A stretch of 64,000 nucleotides of DNA from a bacterium (GCA_963693055.1 OY843751.1:1024001-1088000); one strand, 5' to 3'; numbered from the stretch's first letter, positions 36,532 through 41,550 are shown. Notes: generated by a model not told the origin, from the sequence alone. Numbers and translations are program-made.

Positions 36532-37603
36532 CCAGGGGCAAATAAAAAGGGATGGTTATGATGAAAACCTATATTTTTCGCAAGAGCATAATATTATTCG
36601 CAATTGCTGTATCTCCACTGTTTAACTGTTTTAATCATCAGGACCATCAGGTGACCAGGCCCGAGGTCCCCCGTTATGTGCTGACAGGTACAACAATTGA
36701 TTATACCACCGGACTGCCTTTGGCCAATGTCCCCTTGAAAATAACGGCAGGTATGTTGGTATATGATGTTCGGTTTAACAGCCAAACTCTGCAATCTGAC
36801 AGCAGCGGTTTTTTTTCAATTTCTCCGGTATATCCCGGTAATTATACATTGTACGCGCAAAAAAATGGCTGCTGGTTACAAGGCAGTAAGCTGGAGATAC
36901 AACATGAAGACCGTGATTTTGTATGTAAAGTACCAAATGTAGTTTATGGTCGTTTACATTCATCAAAATTATTTATTGATGATAAAACATTCCCAAATGC
37001 AAATGATTTTTATCGTAGCTTTACTATAAGCAGTTTAACTGGTATTTTCCCAATAAAGTTTTTAGAATATGATCTAAGCTGGTCATATTATTTTGCAAAT
37101 GTAACACTAAAAAACGGCTTGAATACATATTTGTCACATTTTAAGTCTGAAATACCATTAAAGGGAATATATCAATTGGCTATAGGTGGCGGGTATTGCT
37201 GGGGTTGTAAAAAACCGGATTCAATATTGGTGTTTGATCAATGGCAATATACGTTTTTGAATAAATATTCAACAGGTGTTTTTATTAAAGATATTGCCTA
37301 TAACGTGAATGATAAAAATTTATATGCCTGTACTGACTCTTTACTGTACCAGGTAGATGTGAAAACATACGCTATGAATGAAATAGCGGCATTACCCATA
37401 ACCGGTACAATCGCCATGACATGGAATGATAATTATCTTTATCTTTTGCAAGGCACGGAGGACCTTGTCTATAAACTTGACAATCGATTGCGAATCGTTG
37501 ATATTTTTGCCATAGTCGATCAGACAGACAACTTTCAATACACCCAATTGTATGATATGAATTTTGATGGATATAATAATTTGTGGATATCGGTTGAGGG
37601 GTA
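36532..37603 (+). repeat. Direct repeat copy 1 (~1.07 kb) of 38171..39240
   Basis: Starts CCAGGGGCAAATAAAAAGGGATGG and ends GTTGAGGGGTA in both copies; near-identical except ~36941-37199. Confidence 0.95.
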
Positions 37604-37604
37604 A
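36552..37604 (+). CDS. Exported protein A1, probable lipoprotein: carboxypeptidase-regulatory-like beta-sandwich plus probable beta-propeller
   Basis: Signal ending in an atypical lipobox LFNC; LTGTTIDYTTGLPLANV...SDSSGFFSI...PGNYTLYA; C-terminal repeats DIAYN, IAMTWND and DMNFDGYNNLWIS suggest propeller blades (inferred). Confidence 0.75.
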   Translation: MVMMKTYIFRKSIILFAIAVSPLFNCFNHQDHQVTRPEVPRYVLTGTTIDYTTGLPLANVPLKITAGMLVYDVRFNSQTLQSDSSGFFSISPVYPGNYTLYAQKNGCWLQGSKLEIQHEDRDFVCKVPNVVYGRLHSSKLFIDDKTFPNANDFYRSFTISSLTGIFPIKFLEYDLSWSYYFANVTLKNGLNTYLSHFKSEIPLKGIYQLAIGGGYCWGCKKPDSILVFDQWQYTFLNKYSTGVFIKDIAYNVNDKNLYACTDSLLYQVDVKTYAMNEIAALPITGTIAMTWNDNYLYLLQGTEDLVYKLDNRLRIVDIFAIVDQTDNFQYTQLYDMNFDGYNNLWISVEG

Positions 37605-37780
37605 ACTTTATTCAAGTTTACGTTAATTAACTAGTCCGTTATATACGAACTGTTACTTTTCTCTATACTAAATTCAGAATCAAATTTTTGGATGAAAGGT
37701 GATATATTTTCATACAGATTCAATTTCATGTAAAAAGTTTTTATAAAAGATACTTGACTATTGTTTTTTTTTATTTTTTC

Positions 37781-37795
37781 TTGCCCTTGGATCGG
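37781..37795 (+). repeat. 5' arm of the long-range inverted repeat around peptide P1 (pairs with 38166..38180)
   Basis: TTGCCCTTGGATCGG / CTGATCCAGGGGCAA: 15 bp including 2 G-U pairs. Confidence 0.85.
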
Positions 37796-37816
37796 GCGAA
37801 AAATAAGGGGTTAAAA

Positions 37817-38118
37817 ATGAAAAAAATTAAAGTTCTTGGGATTTTTCTTTTATTTTCAGTAATTGTTTTTGGTGGCTTTCAGATTATTAATGTTTCACCT
37901 GCCTATGCTCTAGATAATCCATTTTGTGGTACTGGAATTTATGTCAGAGTGTAATCTATGATGTAGAATGTCAATCTTGTTGGTGCGAACAACTTGGTGG
38001 TGGTCATAGATATTGTTGGGTTTGTCAGTGTTATATTGAGGAAATCGAGTATACTTATATTTCACAGGAGTTAACTTGTGATTATGAGGAGCAATGGCAT
38101 CCCTGCTATGGTTATTAA
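37817..38118 (+). pseudogene. Secreted 10-Cys peptide P1, split by a 1-nt frameshift near 37928-37933
   Basis: Frame 0: MKKIKVLGIFLLFSVIVFGGFQIINVSPAYA-LDNPFCG. The -1 frame continues (Y)WNLCQSVIYDVECQSCWC...CWVCQC...C...CYGY*. The joined product is homologous to P2/P3. Confidence 0.85.
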
Positions 38119-38170
38119 TTGTTAAAACTTAAATAGTCTAAACATACACTGTACAATAGTTTGATCTGAT

Positions 38171-39240
38171 CCAGGGGCAAATAAAAAAGGGATGGTTATG
38201 ATGAAAACCTATATTTTTCGCAAGAGCATAATATTATTCGCAATTGCTGTATCTCCACTGTTTAACTGTTTTAATCATCAGGACCATCAGGTGACCAGGC
38301 CCGAGGTCCCCCGTTATGTGCTGACAGGTACAACAATTGATTATACCACCGGACTGCCTTTGGCCAATGTCCCCTTGAAAATAACGGCAGGTATGTTGGT
38401 ATATGATGTTCGGTTTAACAGTCAAATCCTGCAATCTGACAGCAGCGGTTTTTTTTCAATTTCTCCGGTATATCCCGGTAATTATACATTGTACGCGCAA
38501 AAAAATGAGTGCTGGTTACAAGGTACCAGGTTAGAAATACAACATAATGACCGTGATTTTGTATGCAAAGTACCAAATGTGATTAATGCAAATCTACATC
38601 CAAGTCAAATTTATACAGGTTCTCATTTGTACCCTAATGCAAATGGATTTTATCGTTGTTTTACAATTACAAGTTTAACAGGTGTAATCCCAGTAAAGTT
38701 GATTAGTGCTGATAAAATTTCATATTATTTTGGTAAGGTTACATTAAAGAACGGCTTTGGAAAATATTCATCATTACATGAAACCAATTCTTCATTACAA
38801 AATATATATCAACTTGCACTTGGTGATGAAAAGTTTTGGGGTTGTAAAAAACCGGATTCAATATTGGTGTTTGATCAATGGCAATATACATTTTTAAACA
38901 AATATTCGACAAATGTTTTTATTAAAGATATTGCCTATAACGTGAATGATAAAAATTTATATGCCTGTACTGACTCTTTACTGTACCAGGTAGATGTAAA
39001 AACATACGCTATGAATGAAATAGCGGCATTACCCATAACCGGTACAATCGCCATGACATGGAATGATAATTATCTTTATCTTTTGCAAGGCACGGAGGAC
39101 CTTGTCTATAAACTTGACAATCGATTGCAAATCGTTGATATTTTTGCCATAGTCGATCAGACAGACAACTTTCAATACACCCAATTGTATGATATGAATT
39201 TTGATGGTTATAATAATTTGTGGATATCGGTTGAGGGGTA
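38171..39240 (+). repeat. Direct repeat copy 2 of 36532..37603
   Basis: Same ends as copy 1; divergent block ~38581-38836. Confidence 0.95.
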
Positions 39241-39241
39241 G
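38192..39241 (+). CDS. Exported protein A2, paralog of A1 with divergent central segment
   Basis: N-terminal ~130 aa and C-terminal ~133 aa nearly identical to A1. Confidence 0.8.
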   Translation: MVMMKTYIFRKSIILFAIAVSPLFNCFNHQDHQVTRPEVPRYVLTGTTIDYTTGLPLANVPLKITAGMLVYDVRFNSQILQSDSSGFFSISPVYPGNYTLYAQKNECWLQGTRLEIQHNDRDFVCKVPNVINANLHPSQIYTGSHLYPNANGFYRCFTITSLTGVIPVKLISADKISYYFGKVTLKNGFGKYSSLHETNSSLQNIYQLALGDEKFWGCKKPDSILVFDQWQYTFLNKYSTNVFIKDIAYNVNDKNLYACTDSLLYQVDVKTYAMNEIAALPITGTIAMTWNDNYLYLLQGTEDLVYKLDNRLQIVDIFAIVDQTDNFQYTQLYDMNFDGYNNLWISVEG

Positions 39242-39312
39242 ATATAAATTTCTTACATTTTTTTAAATTCTTGTATTATTAATTGAAATTTGCTAAAAAT
39301 ATTAAAAATATC

Positions 39313-39401
39313 TTGACTTTTACGATAATATTTGCTAATTAAATATCAATCCTTGGGTCGTACAAAACTAAAATTTCAAATAAAATCTTAGGGGATTTAT
39401 T
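39313..39401 (+). promoter_or_regulatory. Duplicated promoter/5'-UTR of P2 (near-identical to 39885..39973 of P3), containing the 5' arm 39347..39359
   Basis: TTGACT -35-like hexamer with a non-consensus AT-rich -10 region; CAATCCTTGGGTC arm; AGGGGA RBS. Confidence 0.65.
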
Positions 39402-39704
39402 ATGAAAAAGATGAAAACTATTAGTCTGGTTCTATTAGTAGCTGTAGTTGTCTTTGGTGGGATTCATATAGTTAATATTGAAAGTGCAAACGCCAGGCCT
39501 GGTTGTCCAGTAGAGAATATGTGCCCTAGCTGGTCATATTGTAAGTCATGTTGGTGTTCTAGTGATGGTTTTACAAGTACCTGGATATGCGAATGTCAAA
39601 AGGCATCTGATTTAGACCATTTCTTTCAAGTAGCAGAAATTGTTCCAGAGTGTGATGAGGGGCCTTGCTATTACGATTGTCCTGAACCTCCAGGTGATGA
39701 TTAA
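39402..39704 (+). CDS. Secreted 10-Cys peptide P2
   Basis: 31-aa Sec-type signal (..VFGG..ANA); acidic mature region C-x5-C-x5-C-x2-C-W-C-x10-C-x-C-x18-C-x4-C-x3-C. Confidence 0.9.
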   Translation: MKKMKTISLVLLVAVVVFGGIHIVNIESANARPGCPVENMCPSWSYCKSCWCSSDGFTSTWICECQKASDLDHFFQVAEIVPECDEGPCYYDCPEPPGDD

Positions 39705-39722
39705 AAATAAATAAAATTTGAT

Positions 39723-39735
39723 GACCCAAGGATTG
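39723..39735 (+). repeat. 3' arm of the long-range inverted repeat around P2
   Basis: GACCCAAGGATTG is the perfect complement of CAATCCTTGGGTC at 39347..39359. Confidence 0.9.
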
Positions 39736-39973
39736 TATTTGTAAAACGGTAAAAATGGATTTATTTTTTAGTTAAGATTTCAAGTTGTTGCTCTCTTGTT
39801 TGGAAAAAGTTTGAAGATAGGTTAATATATTTAAATTTAAAAATAATTTTTTATAATATTTTTTTCGAACAAAAATAAAACATCTTGACTTTTGCGATAA
39901 TAATTGCTAATAAGATATCAATTCTTGGGTCGTACAAAACTAAAATTTCAAATAAAATCTTAGGGGATTTATT

Positions 39974-40273
39974 ATGAAAAAGATGAAAACTATTAGTCTT
40001 GTTCTATTAGTAGCTGTAGTTGTCTTTGGTGGGATTAATATAGTAAATGTTCAAAATGCAGATGCAAGTATTGGCTGTCCAGTAGATAATCTTTGTCCTA
40101 GTTGGGCACATTGTAATAAATGTTGGTGCTCAGATGATAGTGGTGGTGGTGCCAGTACATGGATCTGTGAATGTGAAAGTTTAAAATCTGGTAATAAATA
40201 TCCTGTCGCTGAAATTGAACCGGTATGTAATGAAGGGCCGTGTTATTGGACTTGCCCTGAACCTCCAGGTTGA
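39974..40273 (+). CDS. Secreted 10-Cys peptide P3 (paralog of P2)
   Basis: First 21 aa identical to P2; same 10-Cys scaffold; ends CPEPPG. Confidence 0.9.
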   Translation: MKKMKTISLVLLVAVVVFGGINIVNVQNADASIGCPVDNLCPSWAHCNKCWCSDDSGGGASTWICECESLKSGNKYPVAEIEPVCNEGPCYWTCPEPPG

Positions 40274-40298
40274 TGATTTAATATAAATAATATTTGAT

Positions 40299-40310
40299 GA
40301 CCCAAGGATT
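40299..40310 (+). repeat. 3' arm of the long-range inverted repeat around P3
   Basis: GACCCAAGGATT pairs with AATTCTTGGGTC at 39920..39931 (one U-G pair); followed by a T-run. Confidence 0.9.
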
Positions 40311-40347
40311 TTATTTTTTTGACAAAATTTTTTAAATTGGAGTGGGA

Positions 40348-40917
40348 ATGAAGAAAATTAATTTTACCAATTTATTGTTTATAATAATTTTTGTTTTAAT
40401 GTCATTTGAAGTTATATACCTCAGTGTACAAAATAAAAAGTTAACGAACCAATTGAACAAGCGAGTTTATGCTACTGAAAGCAAACCCGATTTGCCTGTT
40501 GGCACCCAGTTACCAGATTTGTCATTTACTTTACAAAATCAGGATAGAATTGATTTGTCAGCGCATAATGATAAATACTTTTTTGTGTTTTTCTCAACCC
40601 ACTGTCAAGCTTGTGTACAGGATGCTGATACATGGGAAAATATGAATGAGTTGAATACCAAGAATCAAGTGAAAATGATAGGGATCTGTAAAGGTGATCC
40701 TGATGTAGTAAAAGAATTTATGGCACTGCACAAGCTAAACTTTCCTGTTGTTCCTGATCCTGAAAATGAAATTGTTAATCAATTTGGAATAAAATCATTC
40801 CCCAGCAAATGTCTGGTTGATGAAAATAATAAAGTTGTCTTCTATTCCAGAGGATCCTCAGGGAAAAGAGATTTAGAGCAATTAAAAAAGATTGTACCTG
40901 AATTACAGGCAGGTTAA
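40348..40917 (+). CDS. Membrane-anchored TlpA/AhpC-TSA-like thioredoxin-fold protein
   Basis: N-terminal TM; GTQLPDL; FFSTHCQAC; FGIKSFP cis-Pro loop. Confidence 0.88.
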   Translation: MKKINFTNLLFIIIFVLMSFEVIYLSVQNKKLTNQLNKRVYATESKPDLPVGTQLPDLSFTLQNQDRIDLSAHNDKYFFVFFSTHCQACVQDADTWENMNELNTKNQVKMIGICKGDPDVVKEFMALHKLNFPVVPDPENEIVNQFGIKSFPSKCLVDENNKVVFYSRGSSGKRDLEQLKKIVPELQAG

Positions 40918-40920
40918 GAT

Positions 40921-41550
40921 ATGAAGAAGATAGCGATGAATGCTTTGTTGGTTATTGTATTGCTCGCGGTTGGTATTCACTTTGTTATACAAATCAATAA
41001 CAACAATAACGTTTTGGCTGAAATTGATGATTCGCTCAAGCCCTTGTCATATCAGCAGCAAGTTGATTACATGAAACAGGTTTTTGCTCAGGCGGACTCG
41101 TTTCGTTATATTAAATTCAGGGACCAGTTTTTTTATCATGTCTTTCAGGATACGGTCCCGGTTGGGTATGCTAAAATTATCGACAAGGACCTTGCCTGTT
41201 CTACCTGTCGTGATGTGAGATATTTATGCGCCCTGGACAGTGCCTTGTGTGTTAAAGAGGTTATACTTATCAGTGAATTGGACCAGAAACGTATCTATGA
41301 CAAAATACTCCATTTAGAAGATGGTGTAAACCGAGTGGTTGGGAAAAAAGTTTTTAATATTGTGAATTTGTCTGATTTTGTTTCTCAATTCATCAGCACA
41401 TTACCAAGTGATAAAATTTTTAACAAGGATGCGGAGATTGATGTAATCAGTGGTGCCACCAAGACCAGTCACAGTATGTATGAGGGCATTAGAGAGTTTT
41501 TAGATGAAGCGGCTTATTACTCCAGGCAATATCATGCGCAAAATTTGTGA
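40921..41550 (+). CDS. Membrane-anchored protein with CxxC and FMN-binding (flavinylation) motif
   Basis: N-terminal TM; ACSTCRD; DVISGATKTS matches the D-x-x-[ST]-G-A-[ST] ApbE target motif. Confidence 0.7.
   Translation: MKKIAMNALLVIVLLAVGIHFVIQINNNNNVLAEIDDSLKPLSYQQQVDYMKQVFAQADSFRYIKFRDQFFYHVFQDTVPVGYAKIIDKDLACSTCRDVRYLCALDSALCVKEVILISELDQKRIYDKILHLEDGVNRVVGKKVFNIVNLSDFVSQFISTLPSDKIFNKDAEIDVISGATKTSHSMYEGIREFLDEAAYYSRQYHAQNL

Follow-up and report, generated by a model that had tools for sequence, protein, structure and literature searches.

The cluster and its mini-protein genes

We analysed a 64,000-nucleotide stretch of bacterial DNA (GCA_963693055.1 OY843751.1:1024001-1088000; hereafter the window, whose numbering is used below unless another contig is named) that contains a cluster of genes for predicted secreted cysteine-rich mini-proteins, a linked redox pair and predicted lipoproteins. 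The genome carrying the window (G000) is a single contig of 6.5 Mb, and a second species of the same genus (G001) is referred to as the sister genome. As the first-pass annotation had stated, seven co-oriented genes are present at 36552-41550 on the plus strand, in the order A1, P1, A2, P2, P3, TlpA and FMN-CxxC, the last named for its relation to proteins that bind flavin mononucleotide (FMN) and for its CxxC motif. The TlpA gene starts 74 nt after P3, and 3 nt separate it from FMN-CxxC. The cluster is flanked by a histidine kinase gene and by a gene whose product ends in a secretion-system C-terminal domain. Domains of this kind hint at an FCB-group, perhaps KSB1-like, lineage. Neither a maturase for ribosomally synthesised and post-translationally modified peptides (RiPP) nor a peptidase-containing ATP-binding cassette (ABC) exporter turned up in the cluster genes and flanking genes scanned, in agreement with the earlier statement. 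Rfam gave 0 matches in the window, and no description of this system was found in the open-access literature.

P2 (39402-39704) and P3 (39974-40273) are intact and encode precursors of 100 and 99 amino acids. Each begins with a hydrophobic 31-residue leader of the Sec type that ends in an AxA motif and is not of the double-glycine type, and each contains 10 cysteines with spacings of 5, 5, 2, 1, 10-12, 1, 17-18, 4 and 3 residues. When all six frames of the 6.5-Mb genome were scanned, this cysteine scaffold occurred at 3 places only, all in this locus. Since the order P-TlpA-FMN is moreover kept in the second species, the association is not due to chance. P1 (37817-38118) is frameshifted: the frame that opens with ATG at 37817 stops at 37954 after 45 amino acids and 1 cysteine, and the remaining 9 cysteines lie in another frame that ends at 38118. 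Three runs each yielded one 640-nt contig across 37574-38213, without a single differing letter or gap, although all three come from one sample of one study; the assembly itself may derive from that sample, and the contigs are therefore not independent support. The break in P1 is real in the DNA of the sampled population, and an assembly error is not supported, given the matching contigs. The earlier claim of 10 cysteines in each of P1 to P3 therefore holds for P2 and P3 and fails for P1, whose reading frame is broken after 45 codons.

Five P genes were found, in 2 genomes and all in this genus, with P4 and P5 located in the sister genome. P5 has 8 cysteines, and exactly 10 is thus no rule of the family; the four intact proteins, P2 to P5, all have even counts (10, 10, 10 and 8). 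Their mature parts are acidic, with net charges of -10, -6, -7 and -6 in the same order. Two subtypes can be told apart. P2, P3 and P4 have a common promoter and leader and precede TlpA (subtype 1), and P1 and P5 share a leader style and 5' context and lie between two A genes (subtype 2). None of P2 to P5 matched a Pfam or NCBIfam family, and P2 and P3 had no match even at a Pfam E of 0.1. The structural model of P3 contains a three-stranded beta-sheet core with a predicted local distance difference test score (pLDDT) of 83-85 in the strand blocks, and a fold search with this model (mean pLDDT 64) gave no PDB match at E 0.001. The peptides thus match no known family, a question that the first-pass annotation had raised, and they present a new small disulfide scaffold without a sequence or fold match.

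Convincing P matches were confined to G000 and G001 among 61 related genomes searched, and a phylum-wide profile search of 167 genomes returned the same two together with two weak matches (E ~1e-3, one with a stop). A search of 5.8 billion proteins recovered the four input proteins only, with no wider P relative among 123 candidates; a search of 1.84 billion representatives gave P4, P5, one unrelated 1256-residue repeat protein and nothing more, and the top score in the ESM Atlas was 0.77, which is a lead only. Short variable cysteine proteins are hard to detect, and distant relatives of P may escape such searches. At the level of sequence, these results support an undescribed mini-protein family, predicted to be secreted and disulfide-bonded, to which an extracytoplasmic redox pair is linked.

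Complementary arms of 11-16 bp flank all five P genes, the first in the 5' untranslated region (UTR) and the second downstream of the stop codon. The P1 arms (37781-37796 and 38165-38180) can pair over 16 bp, and the second lies immediately upstream of the ribosome-binding region of A2. The P2 arms (39347-39361 and 39721-39735) pair over 15 bp with probabilities of ~1.0, and the P3 arms (39920-39933 and 40297-40310) over 14 bp, the latter arm lying between P3 and TlpA. The helix scores of P1, P2, P3, P4 and P5 were reached by 0, 0, 3, 3 and 16 of 1500 background genes in an ungapped score (a duplex-energy background, in which many bulges are allowed, was uninformative), and A1, A2, TlpA and FMN-CxxC were unremarkable in the same flanking-arm score. 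When the arms were set in register on their shared CTTGG core, 8 positions had changed on both sides, three positions carried single G-U substitutions, and one G-U was kept in all five genes; the five genes represent three arm types and hence few independent covariation events. A TTGACT box precedes the 5' arm of P1 (37754-37759), P2 (at 39313, in the element 39313-39361), P3 (at 39885, in the element 39885-39933) and P4, and a TTGATT box that of P5. These boxes, as putative -35 elements, suggest that transcripts start near the arm and make a separate promoter likely for each P gene. A promoter and terminator scan of the window returned 33 against 25.6 +- 4.6, which is not above chance, and the TTGACT boxes were not among its calls; the putative promoters are accordingly inferred from conservation only. 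We infer that the putative helix, by closing the mRNA, stabilises or releases the peptide message. A covarying helix around each peptide mRNA would be a possible way to set peptide-to-enzyme ratios.

The redox pair and its relatives

TlpA (40348-40917) encodes a membrane-anchored thioredoxin-fold protein of the TlpA/ResA/MauD type with a CQAC motif at 40603-40614 and a Pfam AhpC-TSA/Redoxin match at E 1e-15, and was rightly described as a TlpA-like CxxC protein. Its best NCBIfam match is ResA, below the cut-off; the MauD model gave weak matches only, from two TlpA relatives. The nearest relatives of this TlpA form a clade that is separated from generic TlpAs by a gap in score. Among 15 clade loci outside the genus, 9 have a secreted cysteine-rich gene of less than 100 amino acids, 4 a larger cysteine-rich secreted protein, and 2 neither. 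When a uniform distance of +-1.5 kb was applied, a cysteine-rich neighbour was found in 8 of 13 clade loci vs 0 of 15 lower-scoring generic TlpA loci. By Pfam, MauE adjoins 6 of the 15 clade loci and a DUF5128 propeller adjoins 5 above the cut-off, with propellers below the cut-off at a sixth. Many families of the phylum show this link between the clade and cysteine-rich secreted genes. Because the client peptides of the clade share no obvious sequence with P, and have no family match above the cut-off, the kit appears to be general and its clients lineage-specific. Secreted many-disulfide mini-proteins with a folding kit of their own would thus recur across an uncultured phylum.

The usual helpers of the clade are missing from the cluster. 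DUF5128 had no match in G000 or G001, and the only MauE of G000 lies at genome position 542433 (G000:C1:541945-542849), where it is coupled to a gene with a rhodanese domain. From this distribution it appears that both helpers have been replaced in this genus, MauE by FMN-CxxC and DUF5128 by the A family. The loose resemblance to the mau genes that had been pointed out earlier is stronger than first claimed, since the nearest TlpA relatives adjoin MauE and cysteine-rich secreted clients.

The wider kit also provided 11 unrelated client genes for the flanking-arm score, of which 2 have perfect 12-bp arms of their own, 1 scored 24 and 8 were at background. The 2 genes with perfect arms encode cysteine-rich peptides (L095:551-763 and L135:3431-3691), and their arms are of different sequence. 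Several further arrangements were observed. At L099:796-2439, L134:7635-8621 and L086:24-1325 a clade TlpA precedes a larger secreted protein with a cysteine-rich N-terminal part, and the proteins of L099 and L134 end in a secretion-system C-terminal sorting domain. A MauE-TlpA-peptide cassette in G149 (L096:7028-8342) has a TlpA with one active-site cysteine only and an 8-cysteine peptide that is loosely P-like in its leader and CWC motif. In G048 (L135:464-7991), peptide-propeller units repeat with interspersed DNA repeats, and two different cysteine-rich peptides each stand behind a propeller of their own. G000 itself contains three tandem paralogous lipoprotein-like open reading frames (ORFs) of 148-149 amino acids with 7-10 cysteines and a common N-C-C motif (G000:C1:2496521-2497931).

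The last gene, FMN-CxxC (40921-41550), encodes a membrane-anchored protein of the RnfG/NqrC fold. Its CxxC, noted earlier, is CSTC at 41197-41208; SGAT, a motif of the flavinylation form [S/T]GA[S/T], lies at 41449-41460, and the Pfam FMN_bind score of 20.5 bits falls just under the cut-off of 22; a homologue with 48% identity, P0010, scores 26.6 bits. Homologues number five in all, and every one of the 5 keeps the CxxC, a third cysteine and GAT. An hhalign comparison with nine RnfG sequences (93% probability, E 3.3e-7, 131 columns) placed CSTC on the invariant GY loop of RnfG. In the structural model, whose secondary structure matches the RnfG/NqrC fold, CSTC lies between the strands 79-89 and 99-106 and SGAT (residue 177) at the start of the last helix. 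Such a strand-linking loop is described as one of three loops that hold FMN in RnfG (PMC9588780). The passages concerned in PMC8238504 describe the ApbE flavinylation motif and other flavin/thioredoxin hybrids, not this one.

In searches aimed beyond this phylum, a scan of the genome collection found FMN-CxxC in G001 and G128 only, and in metagenomes a profile found nothing and the query P0009 one contig. The G128 homologue (L029:10966-17896) ends an array composed of a leaderless cysteine-containing peptide, four propellers and a 62-residue ORF, which has no family match and which we take to resemble the start of a broken radical-SAM gene. On the 3.4-kb metagenome contig the homologue lies between two propellers.

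Known bacterial membrane partners that form disulfides are DsbB, VKOR and, recently, MauE. A search of the G000 genome gave no match to DsbB or VKOR; two ApbE, one DsbD and an RnfG are encoded elsewhere in it. According to a recent preprint, MauE replaces DsbB in E. coli, and gaps remain in the known disulfide-forming partners (bioRxiv 10.64898/2026.03.05.709764). Since the clade TlpA adjoins MauE, MauE replaces DsbB, and FMN-CxxC stands in MauE's place, the last protein, a derivative of the RnfG fold and not RnfG itself, is by its position a candidate re-oxidant of TlpA. A flavin-carrier fold whose flavin-holding loop bears a CxxC would then be a candidate for another route of disulfide formation.

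Recombined blocks and the A lipoproteins

At the orthologous site of the sister genome, P4, TlpA and FMN-CxxC alone follow directly after the same histidine kinase, without an A gene. A second site in G001 has the arrangement A-P5-A without redox genes, where G000 has A-A without P. This distribution suggests that two modules meet in the window, P-TlpA-FMN, which is conserved, and A1-P1-A2, which has been inserted. The co-occurrence that the first-pass annotation had proposed to check is therefore conserved for P, TlpA and FMN-CxxC in G001; it does not extend to A, which is absent from that site, nor for P beyond the genus.

Identity between the two genomes is uneven along the module. Mature P (47%) and TlpA (52%) are diverged, while the leader (87-97%), promoter DNA (99%), FMN-CxxC (90%) and flanks (95-96%) are conserved. 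The ratio of nonsynonymous to synonymous substitution (dN/dS) is below 1 in every segment, at about 0.3-0.4. Positive selection as the source of the diversity was discarded on these values, and P, TlpA and A seem instead to vary as recombined blocks, in which old alleles have been swapped by recombination. The diversity of the family, noted earlier, is thus traced to swapped alleles, with no sign of positive selection. The region around window position ~42800 gains and loses genes: a 269-residue gene that follows the secretion-tail protein in G001 (L016:12716-13525) is absent there.

A1 (36552-37604) encodes a predicted lipoprotein with a family-invariant Cys26, an N-terminal carboxypeptidase-regulatory-like beta-sandwich and a C-terminal beta-propeller. 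The lipoprotein-type cysteine follows a hydrophobic leader and is invariant in 31 of 31 aligned copies of the family, and the C-terminal region matches solved propellers such as YncE, in agreement with leads from the Atlas. A2 (38192-39241) is a paralogue of A1 with 85% identity. Both ends of the two genes are ~99% identical, and the difference is concentrated in codons 106-217, where the proportions of nonsynonymous and synonymous differences (pN and pS) are 0.285 and 0.539. The designation of A1 and A2 as variable partners is accordingly true of one divergent block, residues ~106-217, the copies being nearly identical elsewhere. The stretch 36535-36551, directly upstream of A1, contains the end of the P1 3' helix arm and a ribosome-binding region and is nearly the same as the stretch before A2; it is a trace of duplication or conversion inside the A-P-A block.

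Matches to the A family were found in 11 of 167 genomes. G000 has 10 copies and G001 has 9, and 4 of these 19 adjoin a P gene; no other P-like gene was found beside A in 30 A loci. Seven of 11 A-neighbour proteins, picked by eye, are TonB-dependent receptor barrels (PF00593), and the usual role of A looks like that of a receptor-linked surface binding protein. No such receptor adjoins A at this locus, where the flanks are the histidine kinase and the secretion-tail protein. The P-adjacent A copies belong to a subclade confined to the genus that also holds a copy without P (the fork is drawn open in the tree). Elsewhere in G000, three tandem A paralogues stand behind a large receptor-like gene, the last with stops inside the match (G000:C1:209189-212301).

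The A gene upstream of P5 and its orthologue share 69% identity, lowest in the same block, and four other A pairs are 89-95% identical. This divergence may fit a specificity block tied to P. Because identity to the orthologue is likewise low (72%) for the gene left of the P5 locus, and the block at residues 106-217 is variable across the whole A family, a swapped tract would explain the pattern equally well. A complex prediction for mature P5 with the downstream A of G001 scored 0.00 and counts neither way. The divergence of the upstream A suggests that this is the co-varying one, and the pair used may have been the wrong one. The suggestion that the A proteins are cognate binding or immunity partners is reduced to a possibility, with 4 of 19 A copies beside a P, no A at the sister's orthologous site, and A elsewhere following TonB-dependent receptors.

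Interpretation and known systems

We consider it moderately probable that the locus encodes a Mau-like disulfide-folding kit, in which exported acidic cysteine-rich mini-proteins, likely ligands, are served by a putative TlpA/FMN-CxxC relay with a likely flavinylated protein in the place of MauE. The P precursors would be exported by Sec and cut at the AxA motif of their leader. TlpA would then insert and shuffle four to five disulfides in P, and its CxxC would be re-oxidised by the CxxC of the FMN-CxxC partner, which would pass the electrons to an ApbE-attached FMN and then to a membrane acceptor. The closed mRNA helix would likely stabilise the peptide message over the downstream genes. Once folded, the mini-proteins would most likely serve at the cell surface as ligands that bind specifically, whether as signal, tag or inhibitor. 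A second P subtype would have entered later with the A-P1-A block, together with surface propeller lipoproteins, and these may bind that subtype through their swappable block, which is the weakest step.

A number of observations speak against this folding kit or narrow it. The flavins of RnfG and NqrC carry one electron, and disulfide exchange takes two. In the RnfG alignment FMN-CxxC lacks the motif ETPGLG, which is described as absolutely conserved in NqrC/RnfG and as lining the flavin pocket (PMC4348036), so that flavin binding is not assured. TlpA and FMN-CxxC are seen together in this genus only, and the two other FMN-CxxC loci, among propellers, have no TlpA in the stretches seen. Of the clade loci scored for cysteine-rich clients, 9 of 15 were in the training alignment and were chosen after their neighbours had been seen; among the 4 loci first seen after the profile search, 3 have a cysteine-rich neighbour and 1 does not. 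The low identity of TlpA between the two genomes could mean that it was a passenger in a recombination tract. The P5 locus carries no redox genes, and 15 of 19 A copies have no adjoining P. Since G000 also has MauE and DsbD outside the cluster, these could serve TlpA in trans, or TlpA could itself act as reductase or isomerase. Finally, as P was not found outside the genus, the system would be one lineage's variant of a wider kit. The earlier claim of an undescribed system is upheld for the new P family with its redox pair and given up for a free-standing, widespread system.

A bolder version would make the FMN-CxxC protein the founder of a new class of extracytoplasmic disulfide oxidase, of RnfG fold, with covalent FMN and a CxxC set against the flavin, resembling Ero1/Erv in its logic and forming a fourth route besides DsbB, VKOR and MauE. 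It would fold five-disulfide mini-proteins that are made from self-closing mRNAs and read allele-specifically by surface propeller lipoproteins through their swappable block; the whole would be a private system for signalling or tagging. We regard this version as doubtful.

The electrons might also run in the opposite, reducing direction, which we judge unlikely. The flavoprotein would then take electrons from the membrane (the Rnf/Nqr pool or DsbD) and keep TlpA reduced, and TlpA would isomerise mis-paired disulfides or keep the cysteines of P free for a metal whose uptake would run through A and TonB-dependent receptors. The reductase ResA, which is TlpA's best NCBIfam match (below the cut-off), points this way, as do the DsbD and RnfG encoded in G000, the position of A relatives behind TonB-dependent receptors, the acidity of the P peptides, and passages in PMC8238504 in which flavinylated proteins are found alongside DsbD, thioredoxin-like proteins and small cysteine proteins, often in iron uptake. 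The pairing of the same TlpA clade with MauE, reported in the preprint as an oxidase in E. coli tests (bioRxiv 10.64898/2026.03.05.709764), argues for oxidation; so do the even cysteine counts of the four intact P and the predicted beta-sheet core, which fit structural disulfides, and hypervariable loops would be unexpected in a metal carrier. Less likely again is a polymorphic toxin-immunity system, in which P would be secreted antibacterial mini-proteins, the adjoining A their cognate immunity proteins, and loss of P would leave orphan immunity genes. Such a history would account for the A-P-A arrangement found twice, for the broken P1, for the absence of P5 at the orthologous G000 site where the A genes are kept, and for the divergence of the A upstream of P5 (69% vs 89-95%), greatest in the block that separates A1 from A2. 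It sits poorly with the TlpA-linked subtype (P2 to P4), which in G001 stands without A, with the A copies that lack a P and usually follow a TonB-dependent receptor, and with P proteins that are acidic rather than cationic and have dN/dS below 1, and the swapped tract described above (block variable family-wide, left gene at 72%) explains the A divergence equally well.

The least probable account, to which we give little credence, is a chance neighbourhood, in which each P cassette, equipped with a promoter and helix of its own, would be a small mobile unit that lands in A arrays and beside redox genes without a functional tie to them and the inverted repeats would be the ends of DNA recombination. 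P is indeed present or absent at orthologous sites, the A1 duplication breaks within the P1 3' arm, and the top background scorers for flanking repeats resemble transposase genes (judged by eye). The empty G000 site, however, does not end at the arms, and the recurrence of the TlpA-clade link across many families of the phylum would not follow from chance. The arms differ between the subtypes and still pair, and their internal departures are G-U, one of them kept in all five genes, as expected for RNA pairing.

Among known systems, class II bacteriocins and disulfide microcins with immunity genes have, as here, a conserved leader and a variable core, genes that are gained and lost, and a possible adjoining partner. 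They differ in that the present locus has no double-glycine leader and no peptidase-ABC exporter, an acidic core with five disulfides, and as partner a 350-residue multi-copy lipoprotein. The NVEALA peptide/6-bladed propeller loci of Bacteroidota, which we take to place small secreted cysteine peptides beside propeller lipoproteins, presumably come close in this respect, and the leader of P5 ends in a similar motif; P2 and P3 differ by having no Pfam match at E 0.1 and a short 31-residue leader, and the propeller is of another family. With RnfG/NqrC and the ApbE-flavinylated FMN_bind proteins (PF04205), FMN-CxxC shares one N-terminal membrane helix, a homologous sheet, an SGAT that opens the C-terminal helix and an ApbE in the genome; it differs from RnfG/NqrC by the CxxC that replaces the GY loop, by the loss of ETPGLG and by a position outside any rnf or nqr operon, next to TlpA and P. 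The DsbD/DUF3570/thioredoxin/DUF4266 clusters, as described in PMC8238504, have apbE inside the cluster and another flavin domain than the one found here.

The cassettes of peptide, TlpA, MauE and DUF5128 (a 6-bladed propeller) of the same phylum have the same TlpA clade, a secreted cysteine-rich mini-protein and a propeller neighbour, whereas the present cassette is without MauE and DUF5128 and its P sequence family is distinct. In the mauE-mauD-mauA genes of the methylamine dehydrogenase cluster, a small exported many-disulfide client is likewise accompanied by a thioredoxin-fold CxxC protein with a membrane anchor and by a redox partner in the membrane, both encoded next to it. The MauG di-haem peroxidase and the MauB heavy chain are not among the flanking genes scanned (no genome-wide search for them was made). 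Here the client, with its Sec-type leader and variable paralogues, has no relation to MauA (the TTQ light chain), and the partner is an RnfG-fold CxxC protein. The locus would work like mauE-mauD-mauA but is no member of that system, because its client is not MauA and its cluster holds an RnfG-fold protein and no MauE.

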